From the IMG/VR virus record IMGVR_UViG_2667528074_000009: DNA of 16,788 bases, one strand, 5' to 3'. Both the position numbers and the translations under genes were made by a program. Positions 1-5,168 of this stretch are shown here, piece by piece. Each line of letters begins with the position of its first letter. Positions within the stretch are counted from its first letter, which is position 1. Below the pieces are notes generated by a model. That model worked only from the letters and a program-made list of their open reading frames with translations, was not told where the DNA came from and ran no database searches. The stretch comes from a virus. Its lineage: Duplodnaviria; Heunggongvirae; Uroviricota; Caudoviricetes.

Positions 1-105
1 AAGGTAAGTATTCTGCGCAATTTCCCCGACGGTCGCCGGTTCGGTGACGCTTAATTCATTAAACACCACTCTGGCGGTTTCGGTCATATCCTGCTGTTTT
101 AGCAT
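1..105 (-). CDS. Hypothetical protein, 5' end only (gene runs off the left edge)
   Basis: Minus-strand ATG at 105 followed by 35 sense codons (MLKQQDMTETARVVFNELSVTEPATVGEIAQNTYL) to the window edge. It sits downstream of Q and of a minus-strand terminator, where a first late gene would be expected. RBS is weak and no family is recognised. Confidence 0.3.
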   Translation of the reverse strand, partial: MLKQQDMTETARVVFNELSVTEPATVGEIAQNTYL

Positions 106-225
106 GCCTTTTTCCCTTTTCCGGTTAACGTGACATACCAATAACTCTTGTCTGAAAAGCCAGCAAGCTGAAAAACCGGTATTCGTAACCACCAGCGCGT
201 TTAACGCCCTGCACCACTTTTCGGG

Positions 226-253
226 CACAAAAAACCCGCTCGGCGGCGGGTTT
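226..253 (-). terminator. Intrinsic terminator (GC hairpin plus T6 on the minus strand)
   Basis: Stem CCCGC (235-239) pairs with GCGGG (246-250) around a 6-nt loop. On the minus strand the hairpin is followed by TTTTTTG; on the plus strand only by TTT. Possible tR'-like terminator downstream of Q. Confidence 0.5.
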
Positions 254-314
254 AAGCTGTGTGGCGAAGTAACCACTCTTAACAGCATATTTGATTTTTT
301 ACGATTGTAAACTG

Positions 315-343
315 TTGATTATTTATCTCTAATAAAAAATAAT
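315..343 (+). promoter_or_regulatory. Candidate sigma70-like promoter for the lipoprotein gene
   Basis: TTGATT (315-320), 17-bp spacer, AATAAT (338-343), within a strongly AT-rich stretch (290-378) just upstream of the ATG at 379. Hexamer match only. Confidence 0.25.
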
Positions 344-378
344 TGATCTAGGTATACCCTTAACAATGGATAAGATAC

Positions 379-825
379 ATGAATAAAATGACTGCATTAT
401 TACTTGGCGTAACTATCATTTCAGGTTGTGCATCTTCCGTACCATTGATAAAGAAAACTCAATCAGGAAAACCTGAAGGGATTTATCAAAATACGACAAA
501 AGATAAAGTCAAGGATGCCCTTGTGAATTACTGCAATAGTAAAGGATTGATAATTTACAACGCGGATAACAGCAGTGTTATATGTGGTAAAGAACTGGAA
601 GGTGGCTCTGCTGTTCTTGGACAAATGCTAATCGGGAATGCCTATTCAACAACCCCGGTATCAAAAGTCAGATTTACTATCGCTCAAGTTAATACCGATA
701 CAAAAGTATGGGCCGATATGTGGATGGAAACTCAAATGGCAATGGGGCAAGTACAACAAATGGCTATAACAGATAATGCAAGTAAAAACACTATCCAACA
801 ACGTCTTGATGAATTAAAACCTTAA
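379..825 (+). CDS. Putative lipoprotein (moron), 148 aa
   Basis: N-terminus MNKMTALLLGVTIISGC has a hydrophobic signal peptide ending in a lipobox-like ISGC with Cys at the cleavage position. The gene is visibly lower in GC than its neighbours and is oriented against the surrounding minus-strand phage genes. Confidence 0.65.
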   Translation: MNKMTALLLGVTIISGCASSVPLIKKTQSGKPEGIYQNTTKDKVKDALVNYCNSKGLIIYNADNSSVICGKELEGGSAVLGQMLIGNAYSTTPVSKVRFTIAQVNTDTKVWADMWMETQMAMGQVQQMAITDNASKNTIQQRLDELKP

Positions 826-844
826 GTCAATTAATTGAATAACA

Positions 845-866
845 TGGGGAGAATAAATCTACTCCC
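845..866. terminator. Hairpin between the convergent lipoprotein and Q genes
   Basis: GGGGAG (845-850) pairs with CTCCCC (861-866) around a 10-nt A-rich loop. No clean T-tract on either side, so terminator function is uncertain. Confidence 0.3.
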
Positions 867-912
867 CACACGTTAAGCTGATTTAATTCCCCCCCCCTCA
901 ATAAGAGGTCTT

Positions 913-1281
913 CTAACGATCCATCTCTAGCTCAACTTCTAACATCATCAACATGCCGTCAACTATCCCTTCAGCCTTTTGCAACAAACGGCCAACCCAG
1001 CAATCCGAACGACCATGCTTTCGTGCTAGCGCCATAAACGTCATGCCCGCCACGTAATAATCTACCAGCAAATCGTGTAATTCTTTGTTGTTCTTATTCA
1101 ACCGGGCCATACAGCCACAAATGATCATTGCGTCATCGTCGGAACATTGCGGACGCGATTTAACTTTCGACGGTATTAATCCTTTAAAGCCAGCAGCAAT
1201 CGATGGCCATGTGACATCCTCATGATTATTTGCCACCCACGCTCCCCAACGCTCAAGAACCATCTGAATATCACGTGCCAT
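913..1281 (-). CDS. Late-gene antitermination protein Q (short QuuD-like type)
   Basis: [25 protein letters not shown]...[16 protein letters not shown] matches the short Q antiterminator family from memory, including the Cys-rich motif. Sits directly after rusA as in DLP12-type nin regions. Start taken as ATG 1281 (AGGTGG RBS); the ORF track's earlier start at 1290 is GTG. Confidence 0.8.
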
Positions 1282-1642
1282 CGTTACCACCTGTAATTTC
1301 GTAAATCTTCACGCCCAGCCGACCACCAGGTACAAGCTGACTGCGCACAATATTAATTTCATCAAACTGCTCGTCGTCGATAAGCAGTCCCGCATGTGTC
1401 AGTGCATCCAGTGGCGCTTTCAGGATATTGTCCAGGTCTCGACGACGCTTATCCGGCGGCTCTGCGATAACCGTTATCGCCAGCCTTCCGGACAGGTTTA
1501 ATTTCAGCCTCTACTGGCGAACAATAAGTGCCACATCACGGCGATAACGCTTACCGGCTTCCGATATAAAATATGTGCTGCCACGGCGTCGCCAGTAGGT
1601 GTTCACCGTCGGCGGGTAAGGCAAAACAAACTCTATACGCAT
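1271..1642 (-). pseudogene. rusA: rusA Holliday-junction resolvase homolog interrupted by an in-frame amber codon
   Basis: Minus-strand frame from ATG 1642 reads MRIEFVLPYPPTVNTYWRRRGSTYFISEAGKRYRRDVALIVRQ, then TAG at 1513..1511 (codon 44), then continues stop-free as [79 protein letters not shown] to TGA 1273..1271. The DKRRRDLDN and LDDxQ segments are RusA signatures. Absent from the ORF track because the N-terminal piece is under 60 aa and the C-terminal piece has no Met. Confidence 0.75.
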
Positions 1643-2705: not shown

Positions 2706-2978
2706 TTACCTCCAGATCCGTTGCTGGTATGTGCGGGACGGACGCGGTGGGCGTTCGGAATAAGGGAGTTTGACGTAGATTATCCAGAGACGATAATCGA
2801 GGCTGAGAGCTTTCTTAATCTCGTATCCGCGTCTGCGGTAGTTCTGAATCAGCCATTCGGCCTGTTCTTCAGTGCATGGGTCATGCTGGTACCAGTCATA
2901 TTTGAATGCATGAGAACGCCGCCCGTGCCTGCTGGCAAGGTCGGTATCAGAATTGTGATGTTTGGCATTGTGCGCCAT
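2706..2978 (-). CDS. Hypothetical protein (about 90 aa), positional equivalent of rem between hok and ydfU
   Basis: ATG at 2978 (MAHNAKHH...). The longer ORF-track start at 3089 would read through the terminator hairpin at 3055-3080. Stop TAA sits 1 nt before the DUF968 GTG. No family recognised. Confidence 0.4.
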   Translation of the reverse strand: MAHNAKHHNSDTDLASRHGRRSHAFKYDWYQHDPCTEEQAEWLIQNYRRRGYEIKKALSLDYRLWIIYVKLPYSERPPRPSRTYQQRIWR

Positions 2979-3054
2979 CGGTTTTCTCTGCTGGCGCAGC
3001 AGGTGCCAGTTGTTCAGGCTGGCCTGTGGATTGTAAACCAGAATACGTAAAACA

Positions 3055-3080
3055 AAAAACCCGCCGAAGCGGGTTTTCAT
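3055..3080. terminator. Bidirectional intrinsic terminator; copy 1 of a 21-bp direct repeat
   Basis: AAAAA-CCCGC-cgaa-GCGGG-TTTT; T-tract on plus, A-tract giving a T-run on minus. Lies 12 nt downstream of the Doc stop on the minus strand. The 21 bp at 3055-3075 are identical to 3904-3924. Confidence 0.6.
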
Positions 3081-3091
3081 TGGAAGCACCT

Positions 3092-3577
3092 TTAGTTTTG
3101 CTGTTCTATTTTAAGCTTGATAGTTTCATACAAAACAATAGTTGCGCCTGTTTTACATAATTCCCGGCTGTCATACGCACGAGACCAATAACACAACCAG
3201 TTCTCGAGATCTTCTCGAGTATAGGTTTTGCAGGCCAGTCCCTCTGCCATTTCCACGATTTCATCGCCTGGTGCTGTTAACTCATAGCCATTCAACAACA
3301 AGAAGACGTAACCAGCCATCATAGCTGTTCGTTTGTTCGCATTAGCAAACGGATGATTCTGAATCAGACTTTCAATCAATACCGATGCCAGTACAAACAT
3401 GTCATTGATCTGTTCATACCATCGAACCATGCTGGGACGGGCCTGAGAAGAACTTAAGTTATCTGGACTCAGAACACCAACGGGCTCATCTGGCGTCTGT
3501 AATTCAATTAGGGAACGATTGATTTCAACAAGATCATCAACCGTAAGGTAATGCACACCTTCAACAATCTCAGCCAT
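3092..3577 (-). CDS. doc: Doc/Fic-family toxin (death-on-curing-like), 161 aa
   Basis: Contains HPFANANKRTAM, matching the Doc variant of the Fic motif (P1 Doc has HIFNDANKRTAL). Preceded 20 nt upstream by a small antitoxin-sized gene. Confidence 0.8.
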   Translation of the reverse strand: MAEIVEGVHYLTVDDLVEINRSLIELQTPDEPVGVLSPDNLSSSQARPSMVRWYEQINDMFVLASVLIESLIQNHPFANANKRTAMMAGYVFLLLNGYELTAPGDEIVEMAEGLACKTYTREDLENWLCYWSRAYDSRELCKTGATIVLYETIKLKIEQQN

Positions 3578-3597
3578 GGAGTACAGCCCCCCATCTA

Positions 3598-3777
3598 TTA
3601 CACTTTAGAGAGGTCTTCCATGGCTTTCTCATAACGAGAAAAACCGAAATCAAAAGCATTTTTCACTTGTTCACGATGTGCGCAGTTTTCATCAATCGCT
3701 GGGCGAGGGACTGCCACAACGCTTTTATCGCGAGGCGGAATACTCAACCGCGTGTGTTTTTTGAGTGGGCAGCTCAT
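3598..3777 (-). CDS. Putative antitoxin cognate to the Doc-family toxin (59 aa)
   Basis: ATG at 3777 with AAGGA RBS about 9 nt upstream (MSCPLKKHTRLSIPPRDKSVVAVPRPAIDE...). Stop TAA 3600..3598 is 20 nt before the toxin start. Family not recognised (not Phd-like by eye). Confidence 0.55.
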   Translation of the reverse strand: MSCPLKKHTRLSIPPRDKSVVAVPRPAIDENCAHREQVKNAFDFGFSRYEKAMEDLSKV

Positions 3778-3903
3778 ACTAATGAGTCCTTTTGTTTTCC
3801 GATTATTGGCAAAGCCATGCACCAAATTTGATGCAAAATAGATCTGTTTGAGATCCTTAGGATAGTCTAATGGTAGCTAAAATTACAACCTCATAATGCG
3901 ACG

Positions 3904-3928
3904 AAAAACCCGCCGAAGCGGGTTAAGT
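3904..3928. terminator. Intrinsic terminator hairpin; copy 2 of the 21-bp direct repeat; likely 3' end of the hok mRNA
   Basis: AAAAACCCGCCGAAGCGGGTT at 3904-3924, identical to 3055-3075. Lies about 70 nt downstream of the hok stop on the minus strand. Confidence 0.55.
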
Positions 3929-3992
3929 GCGGGTGCGTTGAGGATGCCTGACACATCAGAGGTGGCGAGGGATTTCTCCCCCGCCGGGTCTC

Positions 3993-4148
3993 TTACTCCT
4001 CAGGTTCGTAAGCTGTGAAGACAGCGACCTCCGTCTGGCCGGTTCGGATTCGTACCTCGCAGAGGTCTTTCCTCGTTACCAGTGCCGTCACTATGACGGT
4101 TAAACAGATGACGATCAGGGCGATTAACATCGCCTTTTGCTGCTTCAT
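3993..4148 (-). CDS. hokD: Hok/Gef-family type I toxin (HokD/RelF-like), 51 aa
   Basis: Translation MKQQKAMLIALIVICLTVIVTALVTRKDLCEVRIRTGQTEVAVFTAYEPEE matches the HokD/RelF sequence as I recall it. GGAG RBS upstream of ATG 4148; stop TAA 3995..3993. Missing from the ORF track because it is under 60 aa. Confidence 0.9.
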   Translation of the reverse strand: MKQQKAMLIALIVICLTVIVTALVTRKDLCEVRIRTGQTEVAVFTAYEPEE

Positions 4149-4206
4149 AGCCTGCTTCTCCTTGACCTTTCGGTCCGTAAGAGGCTAACCTATGTTTGTG
4201 TGGCAT
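4000..4206 (-). CDS. mok: mok-like overlapping reading frame (68 codons)
   Basis: A 68-codon ORF starts upstream of hok and overlaps it almost entirely in another frame, the arrangement of mok in hok/mok/sok loci. Coding status inferred from position only. Confidence 0.45.
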   Translation of the reverse strand: MPHKHRLASYGPKGQGEAGYEAAKGDVNRPDRHLFNRHSDGTGNEERPLRGTNPNRPDGGRCLHSLRT

Positions 4207-4260
4207 AGATTGGGCCTCAGATTAATGTTAAGCGTCCTGCAAGACGCGTAATGTTAACTG
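4185..4260 (+). ncRNA. sok: Possible Sok-like antisense RNA (approximate, unverified)
   Basis: In hok/mok/sok loci Sok is antisense to the mok translation-initiation region, which here is around 4200. A TTGACC -35-like hexamer lies at 4162-4167 and an imperfect hairpin at 4233-4248. Boundaries are guesses. Confidence 0.2.
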
Positions 4261-4486
4261 GGGCTTTTCTCTGTCTGCCTTACAGTGGCATGCCCGAGGC
4301 AGACAGCCTCAAGCACCCGCAGCAATCTTACCGACACCGATAAGAAAACGCTATTTTTTATTGCCAGCACCATCTATCCAGGCTAATTTATCTGCGTCAG
4401 AACGGCGCAATGCGCTCGCCTGAGATACGTTTACTTGTCATTGGTAACAACAGATAACGGCAATTGTTGTTTCTGTTTTGTTTCCT

Positions 4487-4520
4487 TCAAAAACCCCGGA
4501 CCATCAAGCCGGGGTTTTTG
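4487..4520. terminator. Bidirectional intrinsic terminator
   Basis: CAAAAA-CCCCGG-accatcaag-CCGGGG-TTTTT; perfect 6-bp GC stem with A-run on one side and T-run on the other. Ends the minus-strand operon 4525-5758. Confidence 0.7.
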
Positions 4521-4524
4521 TTTG

Positions 4525-4608
4525 TTATCCCCAGCGGCAAATCGAATACACCATCAGCGCCACCGCCATCGCAATTCCTACCGTTGTGAATGCTTCAGGC
4601 CAGGTCAT
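4525..4608 (-). CDS. Small hydrophobic peptide (27 aa), translationally coupled to the upstream gene
   Basis: MTWPEAFTTVGIAMAVALMVYSICRWG; its ATG overlaps the upstream TGA (ATGA at 4605-4608); followed directly by the terminator. One predicted transmembrane helix. Absent from the ORF track. Confidence 0.4.
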   Translation of the reverse strand: MTWPEAFTTVGIAMAVALMVYSICRWG

Positions 4609-5168
4609 CGCAAAACATCCTCCGCACTTATCAGTTCGTTCCGCTTCAGGTAGTCCATCGCCTTATCCGGCAATTTACAGTCCGGCTTCACTTTCTTCAG
4701 TTGACTGACCAATTGCTTAACCAGCATGGTTAATTCGTCAGTCTGTTTGCCTGGTACTGGTGGATTGTCGGTTGTACCATGACTGGCAGTACAGTTGGCA
4801 CTTCCTCCCTTCTCCTCCCGCAGCGGTTCAGGCAACGCATCCAGTGAAGCTTTCACAAACCACGCTGCCTGTACTATAACGCCATGAATCCAGCGCAAAT
4901 CAGCATCGCGATCGTTCTTTTTCATCTTTTCACCACTTAAAGCCTGGCTTATGTGGCTGCGAACCAGGTCTTCATGTAACTCCTTCGCATCCTCAATGGT
5001 GAAACCACCAGGCAGGCGAGCCGGAGTTACCGGAGAGTTGCCAGCCTTACGCATGGCCATTTCCACGATTTCAACCATATCTCCTGGTGGAATTTTACAA
5101 AGTTGCCCAATACATTTCTGCTGCCTGGCATATTCGAGAATGTGTTCCAGTTTGGTTCGATTAATCAT
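4605..5168 (-). CDS. Hypothetical phage protein (187 aa)
   Basis: Clean ORF with ATG start; its ATG overlaps the upstream stop (TAATG at 5166-5170). No family recognised. Confidence 0.55.
   Translation of the reverse strand: MINRTKLEHILEYARQQKCIGQLCKIPPGDMVEIVEMAMRKAGNSPVTPARLPGGFTIEDAKELHEDLVRSHISQALSGEKMKKNDRDADLRWIHGVIVQAAWFVKASLDALPEPLREEKGGSANCTASHGTTDNPPVPGKQTDELTMLVKQLVSQLKKVKPDCKLPDKAMDYLKRNELISAEDVLR

Follow-up and report, generated by a model that had tools for sequence, protein, structure and literature searches.

What does a single AT-rich gene do in a lambdoid prophage where it runs against all of its neighbors beside the antiterminator gene Q? The DNA analyzed, referred to here as the window, is the whole 16,788-nt stretch of IMG/VR record IMGVR_UViG_2667528074_000009. 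All credible genes between position 1 and ~10300, a ~10-kb block, lie on the minus strand except one at 379–825 on the plus strand, next to Q (913–1290, minus strand). The coding sequence of this gene has a GC content of 0.371 and a GC3 of 0.289, compared with GC3 values of 0.40–0.60 for all other genes tested. The DNA segment that carries it, 313–919, has a GC content of 0.362 versus a window mean of 0.476 (sd 0.040), and 0.5% of the 607-nt stretches of the window are as low in GC or lower. The lowest-GC part of the window contains this segment, the minimum of 0.348 being reached in the 607-nt stretch that starts at 281. Upstream of the gene, at 312–378 (plus strand), the GC content is only 24%, and this AT-rich region is conserved in the E. 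coli alleles of the segment. These data support the view that the segment is compositionally foreign. An earlier note on this DNA had described a predicted lipoprotein gene that is visibly AT-richer than its neighbors, has its own AT-rich upstream region, lies against the grain next to Q and is the only plus-strand gene in a minus-strand block. Our results agree with this description throughout.

The ORF at 379–825 starts with ATG and encodes a product of 148 aa, or 131 aa in its mature form if it is cut before Cys17. Its N-terminus, MNKMTALLLGVTIISGC, has a positive n-region, then a hydrophobic core, then the lipobox I-S-G-C, whose cysteine is Cys17; the signal peptide and lipobox, MNKMTALLLGVTIISG followed by C17, occupy 379–429 (plus strand). 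The lipobox prediction that the earlier note had suggested was made with a re-implemented PROSITE-type rule, [LVI][ASTVI][GAS]C with the Cys at position 15–35, a charged n-region and a hydrophobic core. The window protein satisfies this rule (MNK-MTALLLGVTI-ISG-C17, that is, IISG before C17), as do 18 of 20 close homologs and 75 of 89 distant homologs. Cys17 is invariant in the alignment of close homologs (A1) and at least 90% conserved in that of distant homologs (A2). In the close homologs position 16 is conserved as Gly/Ala, and none of them has Asp at residue +2 after the lipobox Cys. By the established +2 sorting rule for lipoproteins, Ala at +2 of the window protein predicts sorting to the outer membrane. 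Judged from sequence and structural model, the product is clearly predicted to be a prolipoprotein, which would be processed at Cys17 by Lsp/Lgt.

The gene is under purifying selection: its dN/dS against E. coli alleles of ~93% identity is 0.13–0.17. Against the Salmonella and Jejubacter copies (70% identical), synonymous sites have reached saturation. The identical protein is recorded from E. coli on 14 contigs. Among complete E. coli genomes, 185 of 5426 carry the gene, from human, livestock and food sources, and the ORF is intact across hundreds of E. coli genomes. It is also retained by the viable, inducible phages PhiR40_1 and PhiR55_1; the PhiR phages were reportedly described by Brenes and Laub in 2025. 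Taken together, the ORF, its homologs and their conservation, the dN/dS values, the match to PHROG 3152 and the AF2 model confirm that 379–825 is a real gene of uncharacterized function.

In order to define the limits of the inserted DNA, we used sister prophages. The loci L014–L017 match the window from 1300 to 920 at 97.9% nucleotide identity and again from 312 to 1 at 94%, while the DNA between these two parts is unrelated. The whole cargo cassette thus delimited, 313–919, includes the last ~2 codons and the stop of Q. The edges of the slot are exact: Q 3′ ends diverge past ...GAGATGGA, and the other end is the TTTAC of the −35 element of the late promoter pR′, TTTAC(A/G)NTCGTAAA, at which homology starts abruptly in all loci compared. 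The right-hand boundary is common to 10 loci with 8 different cargos. A boundary repeat or duplicated target at the cassette ends, GATCGTTAG / AATCGTAAA, was considered and rejected as a coincidence, since it is absent from the other loci. The cassette is an extra gene between otherwise adjacent genes and has a distinct composition, as does a moron in the sense of Hendrix/Juhala. These comparisons identify 313–919 as an accessory cassette of a single gene (‘moron’), carried by a Rac-like lambdoid prophage of E. coli in a recombination-prone slot. We are highly confident of the anatomy of the cassette, which lies between pR′ and the 3′ end of a Q gene of the Q21 family, runs opposite to phage transcription and encodes a prolipoprotein.

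Q matches PF06530 with a Pfam E of 1.6e-50, and this family is known as Q21 (PMC9388147). The late promoter pR′ was placed on the minus strand at 277–311 by the onset of homology and by alignment, with a −35 element TTTACA at 311–306, a −10 element TATGCT at 289–284 and an inferred +1 at A277. The pR′ module of the window aligns with those of Stx2a phage, 434 and PA-2. In the Sakai Stx2a-phage Sp5 the start of pR′ has been mapped experimentally, and the published distance from the TSS to the 3′ end is 258 nt; the aligned start A in Sp5 (L100 846) and the end of the tR′ U-tract (L100 1103) span exactly 258 nt. Downstream of the promoter in the window lies a conserved initial transcribed region (229–276, minus strand) with near-invariant columns in alignments A3 and A4 and a predicted fold of −19.8 kcal/mol (z −2.5). 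It comprises a small hairpin, GTGGT-N6-GCCAC, at 276–261 and a terminator-like hairpin, AAACCCGC-N6-GCGGGTTT, with a U-tract at 253–229, both on the minus strand. It is uncertain whether the latter is the real tR′, because the 3′ end mapped in Sp5 lies at a different, second hairpin. The first ORF downstream of pR′ (1–113, minus strand), delimited from the sequence and from the annotation of related records, encodes ~65 aa and runs off the window; its relatives in related prophages are annotated as ‘TrmB family transcriptional regulator’ or hypothetical. The parts of a Q21-family unit recognized here are a PF06530 Q followed by a pR′ homologous to that of Sp5, with a conserved initial transcribed region and a terminator; the QBE and the pause element were not among them.

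From the alignment to the mapped Sp5 promoter and the 258-nt spacing, we infer that late transcripts start at about A277 and move away from the lipoprotein gene. The earlier note had expected late transcripts from the Q side to run antisense through the gene; this expectation is not supported, as the gene separates Q from pR′, which would fire away from it. A pR′ within 826–912, right after Q, had also been considered. It was rejected because this stretch is cassette-specific and absent downstream of the 97.9%-identical Q. Antisense transcription could come only from early pR transcripts reading through Q, and these would meet a hairpin at 894–846 first. The Q/pR′/StxS unit of Stx phages (Sakai Sp5, P13374) has a Q of the same family, and its pR′ −35, −10 and initial transcribed region are homologous to those of the window. 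In the Stx2a phages, however, pR′ overlaps the Q stop without cargo between them and the toxin cargo lies downstream of tR′, whereas the cargo of the window lies upstream of pR′. Its location between Q and pR′ would therefore insulate it from Q-dependent late transcription, unlike stx.

The hairpin just mentioned lies between the convergent Q and lipoprotein genes (846–894). Its predicted folding energy is −27.2 kcal/mol (z −2.9) as minus-strand RNA and −18.9 kcal/mol as plus-strand RNA. It contains a run of nine C at 889–897 and a terminator-like site at 867–848 on the minus strand, while its plus strand has no proper U-tract. We regard it as a candidate insulator or terminator. Another locus, L009, has a canonical terminator after its lipoprotein homolog, and Rfam found no RNA family in 1–1300. 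On the other side of the gene, a promoter-like site (−35 TTGATT at 315–320, a 17-nt spacer and −10 AATAAT at 338–343, plus strand) stands back-to-back with pR′. It is a consensus match only: the region has 6 such sites compared with 3.4 ± 1.9 in shuffled sequences, which is not above chance. Similar scans near homologs located elsewhere gave no informative promoter. The lack of a significant promoter signal, the very low GC and the annotation of the gene in all sources as nothing beyond ‘hypothetical protein’ would suit a silent passenger, horizontally acquired, unexpressed because of H-NS silencing and without a current role in the prophage. Against this reading, the dN/dS values, the ORF intact in so many E. 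coli genomes, the retention of the gene in PhiR40_1 and PhiR55_1 and a lipobox conserved across 806 clusters of homologs make it very unlikely.

We also compared the cargo found in the slot and the places where the family occurs. In L014–L017 a near-identical Q (97.9% at the nucleotide level) is followed by different cargo, and in the Stx2a phages Sp5 and P13374 there is none, Q and pR′ being abutted. Other cargo in the Q-pR′ slot includes a second, unrelated lipoprotein, a CPBP protease and an HEC-04-like ATPase, a defense candidate (E 4e-47). Among the closest parallels, the porin genes lc (PA-2) and nmpC (DLP12/434) occupy exactly the same slot in the same reverse orientation, each as one envelope-protein gene with its own regulatory region, and both the expression of lc and its conversion phenotype are known. 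Their products are 16-strand porins of ~365 aa, whereas that of the window is a 148-aa lipoprotein without sequence relation to them. In E. coli the lipoprotein gene is next to Q, far from the tail genes. Elsewhere, homologs lie between the tail genes K and I, between H and M, in the nin region and, on ~44-kb contigs that probably represent a plasmid, next to ToxN; a PDZ-fused homolog is found in an integrase island beside CBASS genes. Both further proposals of the earlier note, that the gene is a moron and that it lies at a known location for conversion cargo, are supported by the other or absent cargo beside related Q genes, by the other accessory slots that the gene occupies and by the porin genes. 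The cassette is an ordinary kind of prophage moron that comes from an unstudied family.

The parallel with conversion genes suggests that the lipoprotein might be a host-fitness or virulence factor of the Bor/Iss type, which, expressed from the prophage, would harden the envelope of the lysogen (resistance to serum, bile or antimicrobials) and not act on phages. Lambda Bor is a small outer-membrane lipoprotein moron that the prophage expresses, its direction of transcription being opposite to that of the late operon; the gene studied here follows the same logic, a reverse-oriented lipoprotein moron near late genes. Phage 434 has a Bor/Iss-like gene just after its lysis (spanin) genes, the Q-pR′ slot also houses the porin conversion genes, and the carriage of the gene by E. 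coli from humans, livestock and food would fit a fitness role. However, Bor/Iss (PF06291) has 97 aa and is located after Rz, whereas the window lipoprotein has 148 aa, lies between Q and pR′ and shows no similarity to it (no match to Pfam PF06291). Moreover, the cargo that neighbors the family elsewhere (ToxN, CBASS) or shares its slot (HEC-04) is defense-like and not virulence-like. We consider a Bor/Iss-type role unlikely.

A homology search, likewise suggested by the earlier note, placed the lipoprotein in a large family. PHROG 3152, in the category ‘unknown function’, matches it over its full length (residues 1–148 of 148, E 4.2e-99), and a profile search with the family found 806 homologous clusters at the 50% identity level, in which the lipobox is kept. 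Pfam gave no family at E ≤ 0.1 apart from a sub-threshold SapB_1, and NCBIfam gave nothing usable. A scan of PADLOC-DB 2.0 gave nothing significant, the only match being PbeC (E 0.012, 12 bits). A literature search for this prophage record, PHROG 3152, the carrier phages and the promoter sequence found nothing relevant. The AF2 model, with a mean pLDDT of 85, predicts for the 131-aa mature domain a compact alpha/beta, helix-grip-like fold, and does so with good confidence. Two cysteines, C52 and C69, are conserved and probably form a disulfide. Weak matches to the Rz-like spanins of PHROG (E 0.016–0.043) and the location of the gene fairly near the lysis genes might suggest a lysis accessory, an outer-membrane lipoprotein resembling an o-spanin. 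These matches are confined to the signal peptide (residues 1–33/45), and the 131-aa globular domain is not a short proline-rich Rz1. In addition, the carrier prophages have their own Rz/Rz1 region, and the gene lies outside the lysis cassette in the orientation opposite to the late operon. The domain structure effectively refutes such a lysis role.

Chromosomal PDZ-lipoproteins of Xanthomonadales and Sphingomonadales are true homologs over the whole 148-aa domain (profile E 1e-50 to 1e-70); their N-domain is 30–35% identical to the window lipoprotein and keeps the lipobox and both cysteines. They have ~300 aa with an extra PDZ (±SHOCT) module, and the prophage version is the bare domain. Such PDZ (+SHOCT) homologs were seen in Xanthomonas, Stenotrophomonas, Sphingomonas and Caulobacteraceae, and a single homolog has a YfiO/BamD-like TPR fusion. 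A search of the PDB with the family profile matched only the PDZ part of the longer homologs. One possibility is that the bare domain acts as a periplasmic adaptor or modulator, docking on the same partner as the PDZ- and TPR-lipoproteins (a protease, BAM/Lpt or peptidoglycan) and tuning envelope biogenesis or stress signaling for the phage, e.g. around lysis or assembly. The identity to the N-domain, the TPR fusion and the co-orientation of the gene with late genes in the tail-cluster contexts are in its favor. The fold similarity is generic, with 7–10% identity. No Foldseek hit of the model reached E ≤ 1e-3 in PDB or BFVD; the BamC N-terminal domain, Francisella Flpp3 (DUF3568), DUF4468/TBP-like and KA1 helix-grip-like domains reach TM-scores of 0.4–0.5 at E ≥ 1e-3 with 7–12% identity, which gives no ground for functional inference. 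Since only one homolog has the BamD-type fusion, a conserved chromosomal neighborhood was not seen among the homologs and the orientation against lytic transcription in the window suits lysogenic more than late expression, we think it improbable that the protein is such an adaptor.

We believe that the most likely role of the lipoprotein is envelope-level phage exclusion or host protection. In its specific form, which we put forward tentatively as a serious possibility short of probable, the outer-membrane lipoprotein would bind a conserved envelope component and make the lysogen refractory to competing phages. In the lysogen the gene would be transcribed from the AT-rich region in front of it, by a promoter of its own that diverges from pR′, and the hairpin behind the gene may protect it against transcripts that read through Q. 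The lipoprotein would bind its envelope component on the periplasmic side of the outer membrane, and competing phages would be blocked at adsorption or DNA entry. Superinfection-exclusion lipoproteins such as Llp, Cor and Rtp45 follow this logic, for which the prophage would here use a larger protein unrelated to them. All three, Llp from T5, Cor from phi80/N15/T1 and Rtp45 from Rtp, are phage lipoproteins that sit in the inner leaflet of the outer membrane and act periplasmically on an outer-membrane protein (PMC12685063, PMC9586334); they are ~6–8 kDa in size, with simple hairpin or small folds, and are encoded beside the cognate receptor-binding gene. The window lipoprotein, in contrast, is 14.5 kDa and has a predicted helix-grip-like fold, and no sequence or fold match to the three proteins was found. 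The placement of homologs inside tail-tip gene clusters resembles that of the known exclusion lipoproteins (mechanisms in PMC12685063). The spread of the family over accessory slots of mobile elements and the HEC-04-like defense candidate found in the same slot also count in favor of this reading. Polar motifs of surface type, TxSGKPE, GNxYST and ETQMxxGQ, are conserved across distant bacteria, as would suit a conserved binding partner.

The J protein of PhiR40_1 aligns with J of other carriers only up to residue ~1030 of 1232, and a receptor-binding C-terminus of J common to carrier phages was not found when PhiR40_1 was compared with the tail-slot carriers. The J C-termini thus differ among carriers and give no hint that the gene goes with any one receptor, which is why an exclusion factor directed at the receptor of the carrier phage itself was dropped. 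Several points were counted against exclusion. No homology link to exclusion or defense proteins was found in Pfam, NCBIfam or PADLOC. AT-rich cargo is often silenced by H-NS, and the promoter call is not above chance. The chromosomal PDZ/TPR fusions point equally well to a housekeeping periplasmic role.

A broader reading, which we regard as rather doubtful, is that the protein belongs to an unrecognized family of outer-membrane lipoproteins of mobile elements, in which an unnamed periplasmic domain that is widespread (806 clusters) and often PDZ-fused occurs on its own, and that it excludes phages or protects the envelope by binding a conserved outer-membrane machine from the periplasm. The Q-pR′ gap would then be a hotspot for cargo, with sharp limits, in lambdoid phages of the Q21 type, relatives of Stx phages included. 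If phage exclusion or envelope hardening is the true function, a new and widely mobile family would join the few phage lipoproteins known to act at the outer membrane; it has spread to the tail, nin and Q slots of prophages, to an integrase island and, probably, to a plasmid. Hundreds of proteobacterial PDZ-lipoproteins share the unnamed domain, whose function could then be approached for the first time. If the Q-pR′ gap is a hotspot, further envelope and defense genes could be mined from it. Independently of function, insertion between Q and pR′ bears on the regulation of the cargo and on the reading of Q-proximal cargo in relatives of Stx phages, and the exact slot boundaries can be used for a systematic harvest of cargo. 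No tRNA was predicted in the window by ARAGORN, although tRNAs occur a short way beyond this region in related prophages.

The lipoprotein gene of the window is carried on a replaceable cassette between the antiterminator Q gene (913..1290(-), Pfam PF06530, E 1.6e-50) and a conserved late-promoter module. The PF06530 group of Q proteins has been named the Q21 family (PMC9388147). BLAST was used to compare the window with eighty IMG/VR loci that carry related Q genes. L014-L017, the loci with the closest Q (97.9% at the nucleotide level), align with window 1300 to 920, then contain 603 nt of unrelated DNA, and align again with window 312 to 1 (94%). Because these loci match on both sides with unrelated DNA between, window 313-919 is a replaceable cassette; these exact boundaries go beyond the earlier note. 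The Q gene takes its final two codons and its stop codon from the cassette. At the other end of the cassette, ten aligned loci carrying eight different cargos all show an abrupt onset of homology at TTTAC(A/G), window 311-306(-).

The cargo of this slot varies widely. L014-L017 carry, at about 2872-3474 and also reversed, a different, unrelated 159-aa lipoprotein (MKKIALTLLSTLIITGCTAQ...; GC 0.35) that has no Pfam or PADLOC match. Other cargos are two ORFs, one transglycosylase-like (L059), a DUF4236 protein (L060), a small secreted lysine-rich protein (L065 and L066), a CPBP protease (an O157:H7 strain) and an ORF6N protein (a mouse isolate). Defence-type cargo is hosted as well, since the 483-aa AAA_15/OLD-like ATPase of L061-L063 (about 2863-4705) matches the PADLOC candidate HEC-04 (E 4e-47). 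In phages PA-2 and 434 the porin gene lc/nmpC occupies the identical gap from Q to the module, likewise reversed, as it does in DLP12. Lc is a classic lysogenic-conversion protein, and these porin genes bear out the suggestion that the lipoprotein gene sits at a site for conversion cargo. The slot differs from that of stx, which is downstream of pR'/tR' and Q-dependent, whereas the lipoprotein slot is upstream of pR' and Q-independent.

Part of the cassette is a Q/lipoprotein intergenic hairpin (894-846; -27 kcal/mol on the strand of Q read-through, z -2.9), whose stem includes a run of nine C at 889-897; in E. coli alleles of the cassette the run is only five C long. In L053 a 1805-nt insertion (2890-4694) lies exactly at the point of the C-run and carries a 420-aa ORF with no Pfam or PADLOC match. 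One E. coli database protein of 82 aa (P0030, PF06530), labelled as partial antiterminator Q, also shares 93% identity with 28% of the lipoprotein; a miscalled or chimeric ORF spanning the Q/cassette junction is its probable origin.

The lipoprotein gene (379..825(+), an ATG-started ORF of 148 aa) is real. An identical protein is recorded from E. coli, every time as 'hypothetical protein', and among 5426 complete E. coli genomes about 185 contain the locus together with both flanks. Comparison with the ~93%-identical E. coli alleles gives a dN/dS of 0.13-0.17; relative to copies that share 70% amino-acid identity, synonymous sites have reached saturation. This purifying selection contradicts the idea that the gene is a silent passenger, as does its retention in the viable, inducible phages PhiR40_1 and PhiR55_1, and we regard that idea as very unlikely.

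At the N-terminus, MNKMTALLLGVTIISGC, a basic n-region is followed by a hydrophobic core and the lipobox I-S-G-C17. Using a self-coded PROSITE-style rule, we found a lipobox in the window protein, in 18 of 20 close homologues and in 75 of 89 distant ones, in agreement with the lipoprotein call of the earlier note. Cys17 is unchanged across all close homologues, and C52 and C69 are also conserved. In E. coli, lipoproteins are sorted according to residue +2. Since this residue is Ala, Ser, Val or Thr among the proteins tested and never Asp, the rule predicts localisation to the outer membrane. As for function, a host-protective lipoprotein resembling Bor is an unlikely alternative to the phage-exclusion role proposed below. 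A spanin-like role in lysis is highly improbable, as spanin matches are limited to the signal peptide.

The window represents a Rac-like lambdoid prophage whose integrase and RecE-like exonuclease lie at the right end. As the earlier note stated, the lipoprotein gene is the only plus-strand gene of its block; the remaining credible genes from 1 to ~10300 (Q, DUF968, Fic/Doc, hok, DUF1627, DUF977, YdaT-like and others) are all on the minus strand. It is also AT-richer than its neighbours, as had been described. The coding sequence has a GC of 0.371 and a GC3 of 0.289, compared with GC3 values of 0.40-0.60 in fourteen other genes of the window, and the 66 nt before the start codon are 24% GC. 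GC is 0.362 over the 607-nt cassette (window mean 0.476, sd 0.040), and only 0.5% of 607-nt stretches are as low or lower. The cassette falls inside the part of the window where GC is lowest, down to 0.348 for the 607-nt stretch from 281.

The module next to the cassette consists of a -35 hexamer TTTACA (311-306(-)), a 16-nt spacer, a -10 hexamer TATGCT (289-284(-)), a GTTAAGAGTGGTTACTTCGCCACACAGCTT stretch almost invariant in the ten-locus alignment, and a terminator-like hairpin AAACCCGC-N6-GCGGGTTT with a U-tract (253-229(-)). It is a unit in its own right, since in two loci similarity stops directly past the hairpin. Matches to the 94-nt module occur in 359 phage records, among them 434, PA-2 and both Stx2a and Stx1a phages. 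In the Stx2a phage P13374 and the Sakai prophage Sp5 (L100) it lies directly at the end of the PF06530 Q gene, with the Q stop codon inside the promoter spacer. By dRNA-seq and Term-seq, the pR' start of Sp5 was 'closely associated with Q' and the 3' end of tR' was 258 nt downstream (PMC7547250). In Sp5 the A aligned seven bases past the -10 hexamer is L100 846, and the next strong terminator has its final U at L100 1103, a span of exactly 258 nt. Because of this agreement the module is taken as pR', with the window +1 predicted at about A277. The mapped 3' end of Sp5 is the second hairpin, although the first is conserved and terminator-like; both the 253-229 hairpin and a small invariant hairpin after the pR' start (229-276(-); L100 847-897) are conserved like the promoter. 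An old PA-2 record annotates a CRP site across the small hairpin.

Transcription from pR' runs leftwards into a ~65-aa ORF starting at 113, which in related phages is followed by methylase, holin, lysozyme, spanin and terminase genes. Late transcripts from the Q side had been expected to run antisense through the lipoprotein gene. Since pR' starts at about A277 and fires leftwards, late Q-modified transcripts begin beyond the gene and head away from it; the cargo is upstream of pR', which corrects the antisense idea. Only early pR transcripts passing through Q could be antisense to the gene, and these would encounter the 894-846 hairpin first. On the plus strand, TTGATT-17-AATAAT at 315-343 fits the promoter consensus, such matches in the region being not above chance. 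If this site is real, it and pR' are back-to-back, with ~3 bp between the -35 hexamers.

Searches of the lipoprotein against Pfam, NCBIfam and PADLOC matched no family. PHROG 3152, a group without known function, matches it end to end (E 4e-99). An AlphaFold2 model from a 20-sequence alignment (mean pLDDT 85, pTM 0.75) has the predicted order beta-alpha-beta-beta-alpha-beta-beta-beta-alpha, and Foldseek found nothing at E<=1e-3 among PDB and viral models; the modelled fold is generic and does not allow a function to be assigned. A word-indexed search gave only 30 relatives, Enterobacterales throughout, and when 1.84 billion representatives were scanned in full with an HMM, 806 clusters were recovered, 402 at E<=1e-10. 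Many of these homologues are lipoproteins of ~300 aa in which the domain is followed by PDZ and often SHOCT (Xanthomonas, Stenotrophomonas, Sphingomonas, Sphingobium, Caulobacteraceae), and one has a YfiO/BamD-like TPR in place of PDZ. A PDB sequence search of the N-domain found no related solved structure. Judged by sequence, the prophage protein is a stand-alone version of an unnamed lipoprotein domain that is widespread, a point new to this analysis. A role as adaptor in the periplasm, in keeping with its relation to the PDZ- and TPR-lipoproteins, is a reading we consider doubtful.

Homologues sit in several other places: between tail genes K and I (Salmonella, Jejubacter), past the tape-measure gene and ahead of M (Photorhabdus and three metagenomic contigs; in one case a canonical terminator, still within the tail operon, follows the copy), and in the nin region between RecA-like and LexA-like genes (Phytobacter). 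A 46%-identical paralogue in E. coli, Salmonella and Kosakonia (L102-L104, P0222) is on ~44-kb contigs and adjoins ToxN and a lasso-peptide-like cluster. In Stenotrophomonas a PDZ-fused homologue (L094-L095, P0239) occupies an integrase island, with DUF4917 and CBASS genes as neighbours. Across these settings the gene thus travels alone as a passenger in accessory regions of mobile elements, and this pattern argues most strongly that it is a moron, the term used in the earlier note. Association with these accessory neighbours is a weak argument for a role in phage conflict.

What the analysis shows is the cassette, a lipoprotein signal, a fold prediction and a map of transcription; the rest of the mechanism is inferred. 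The protein would be made in the lysogen, anchored to the outer membrane facing the periplasm, and would bind a conserved envelope component, which would keep competing phages from adsorbing or entering. This exclusion reading, which we put forward tentatively, takes Llp, Cor and Rtp45 as its model (PMC12685063), but those lipoproteins are half as large and unrelated in sequence and fold. Counting against it, the receptor-binding terminus of the tail protein J is not common to the carrier phages compared, and defence profiles gave no match for the lipoprotein. The gene, so far unstudied, is a lipoprotein moron of a prophage; it occupies an already known slot for conversion cargo and does not represent a novel type of system. 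An exclusion phenotype and an envelope partner, if found, would make it more significant.

Three further features were noted on the minus strand. An isrK-like match (RF01394, the Gifsy-1 antitermination-associated sRNA) at 3903-3984(-) scores 26 bits against a gathering score of 50 and may be due to chance. In the nin region, within 3092-3825(-), a 161-aa Fic/Doc-family ORF (PF02661, E 1e-11) is preceded by a 75-aa ORF, and the two may form a phd/doc-type toxin-antitoxin pair. A hok/sok-type toxin-antisense locus at 3993-4318(-) comprises a hok-like 51-aa ORF (3993-4148(-)) and a match to sok RNA (4146-4318(-); Rfam RF01794, 109 bits, E 5e-25).
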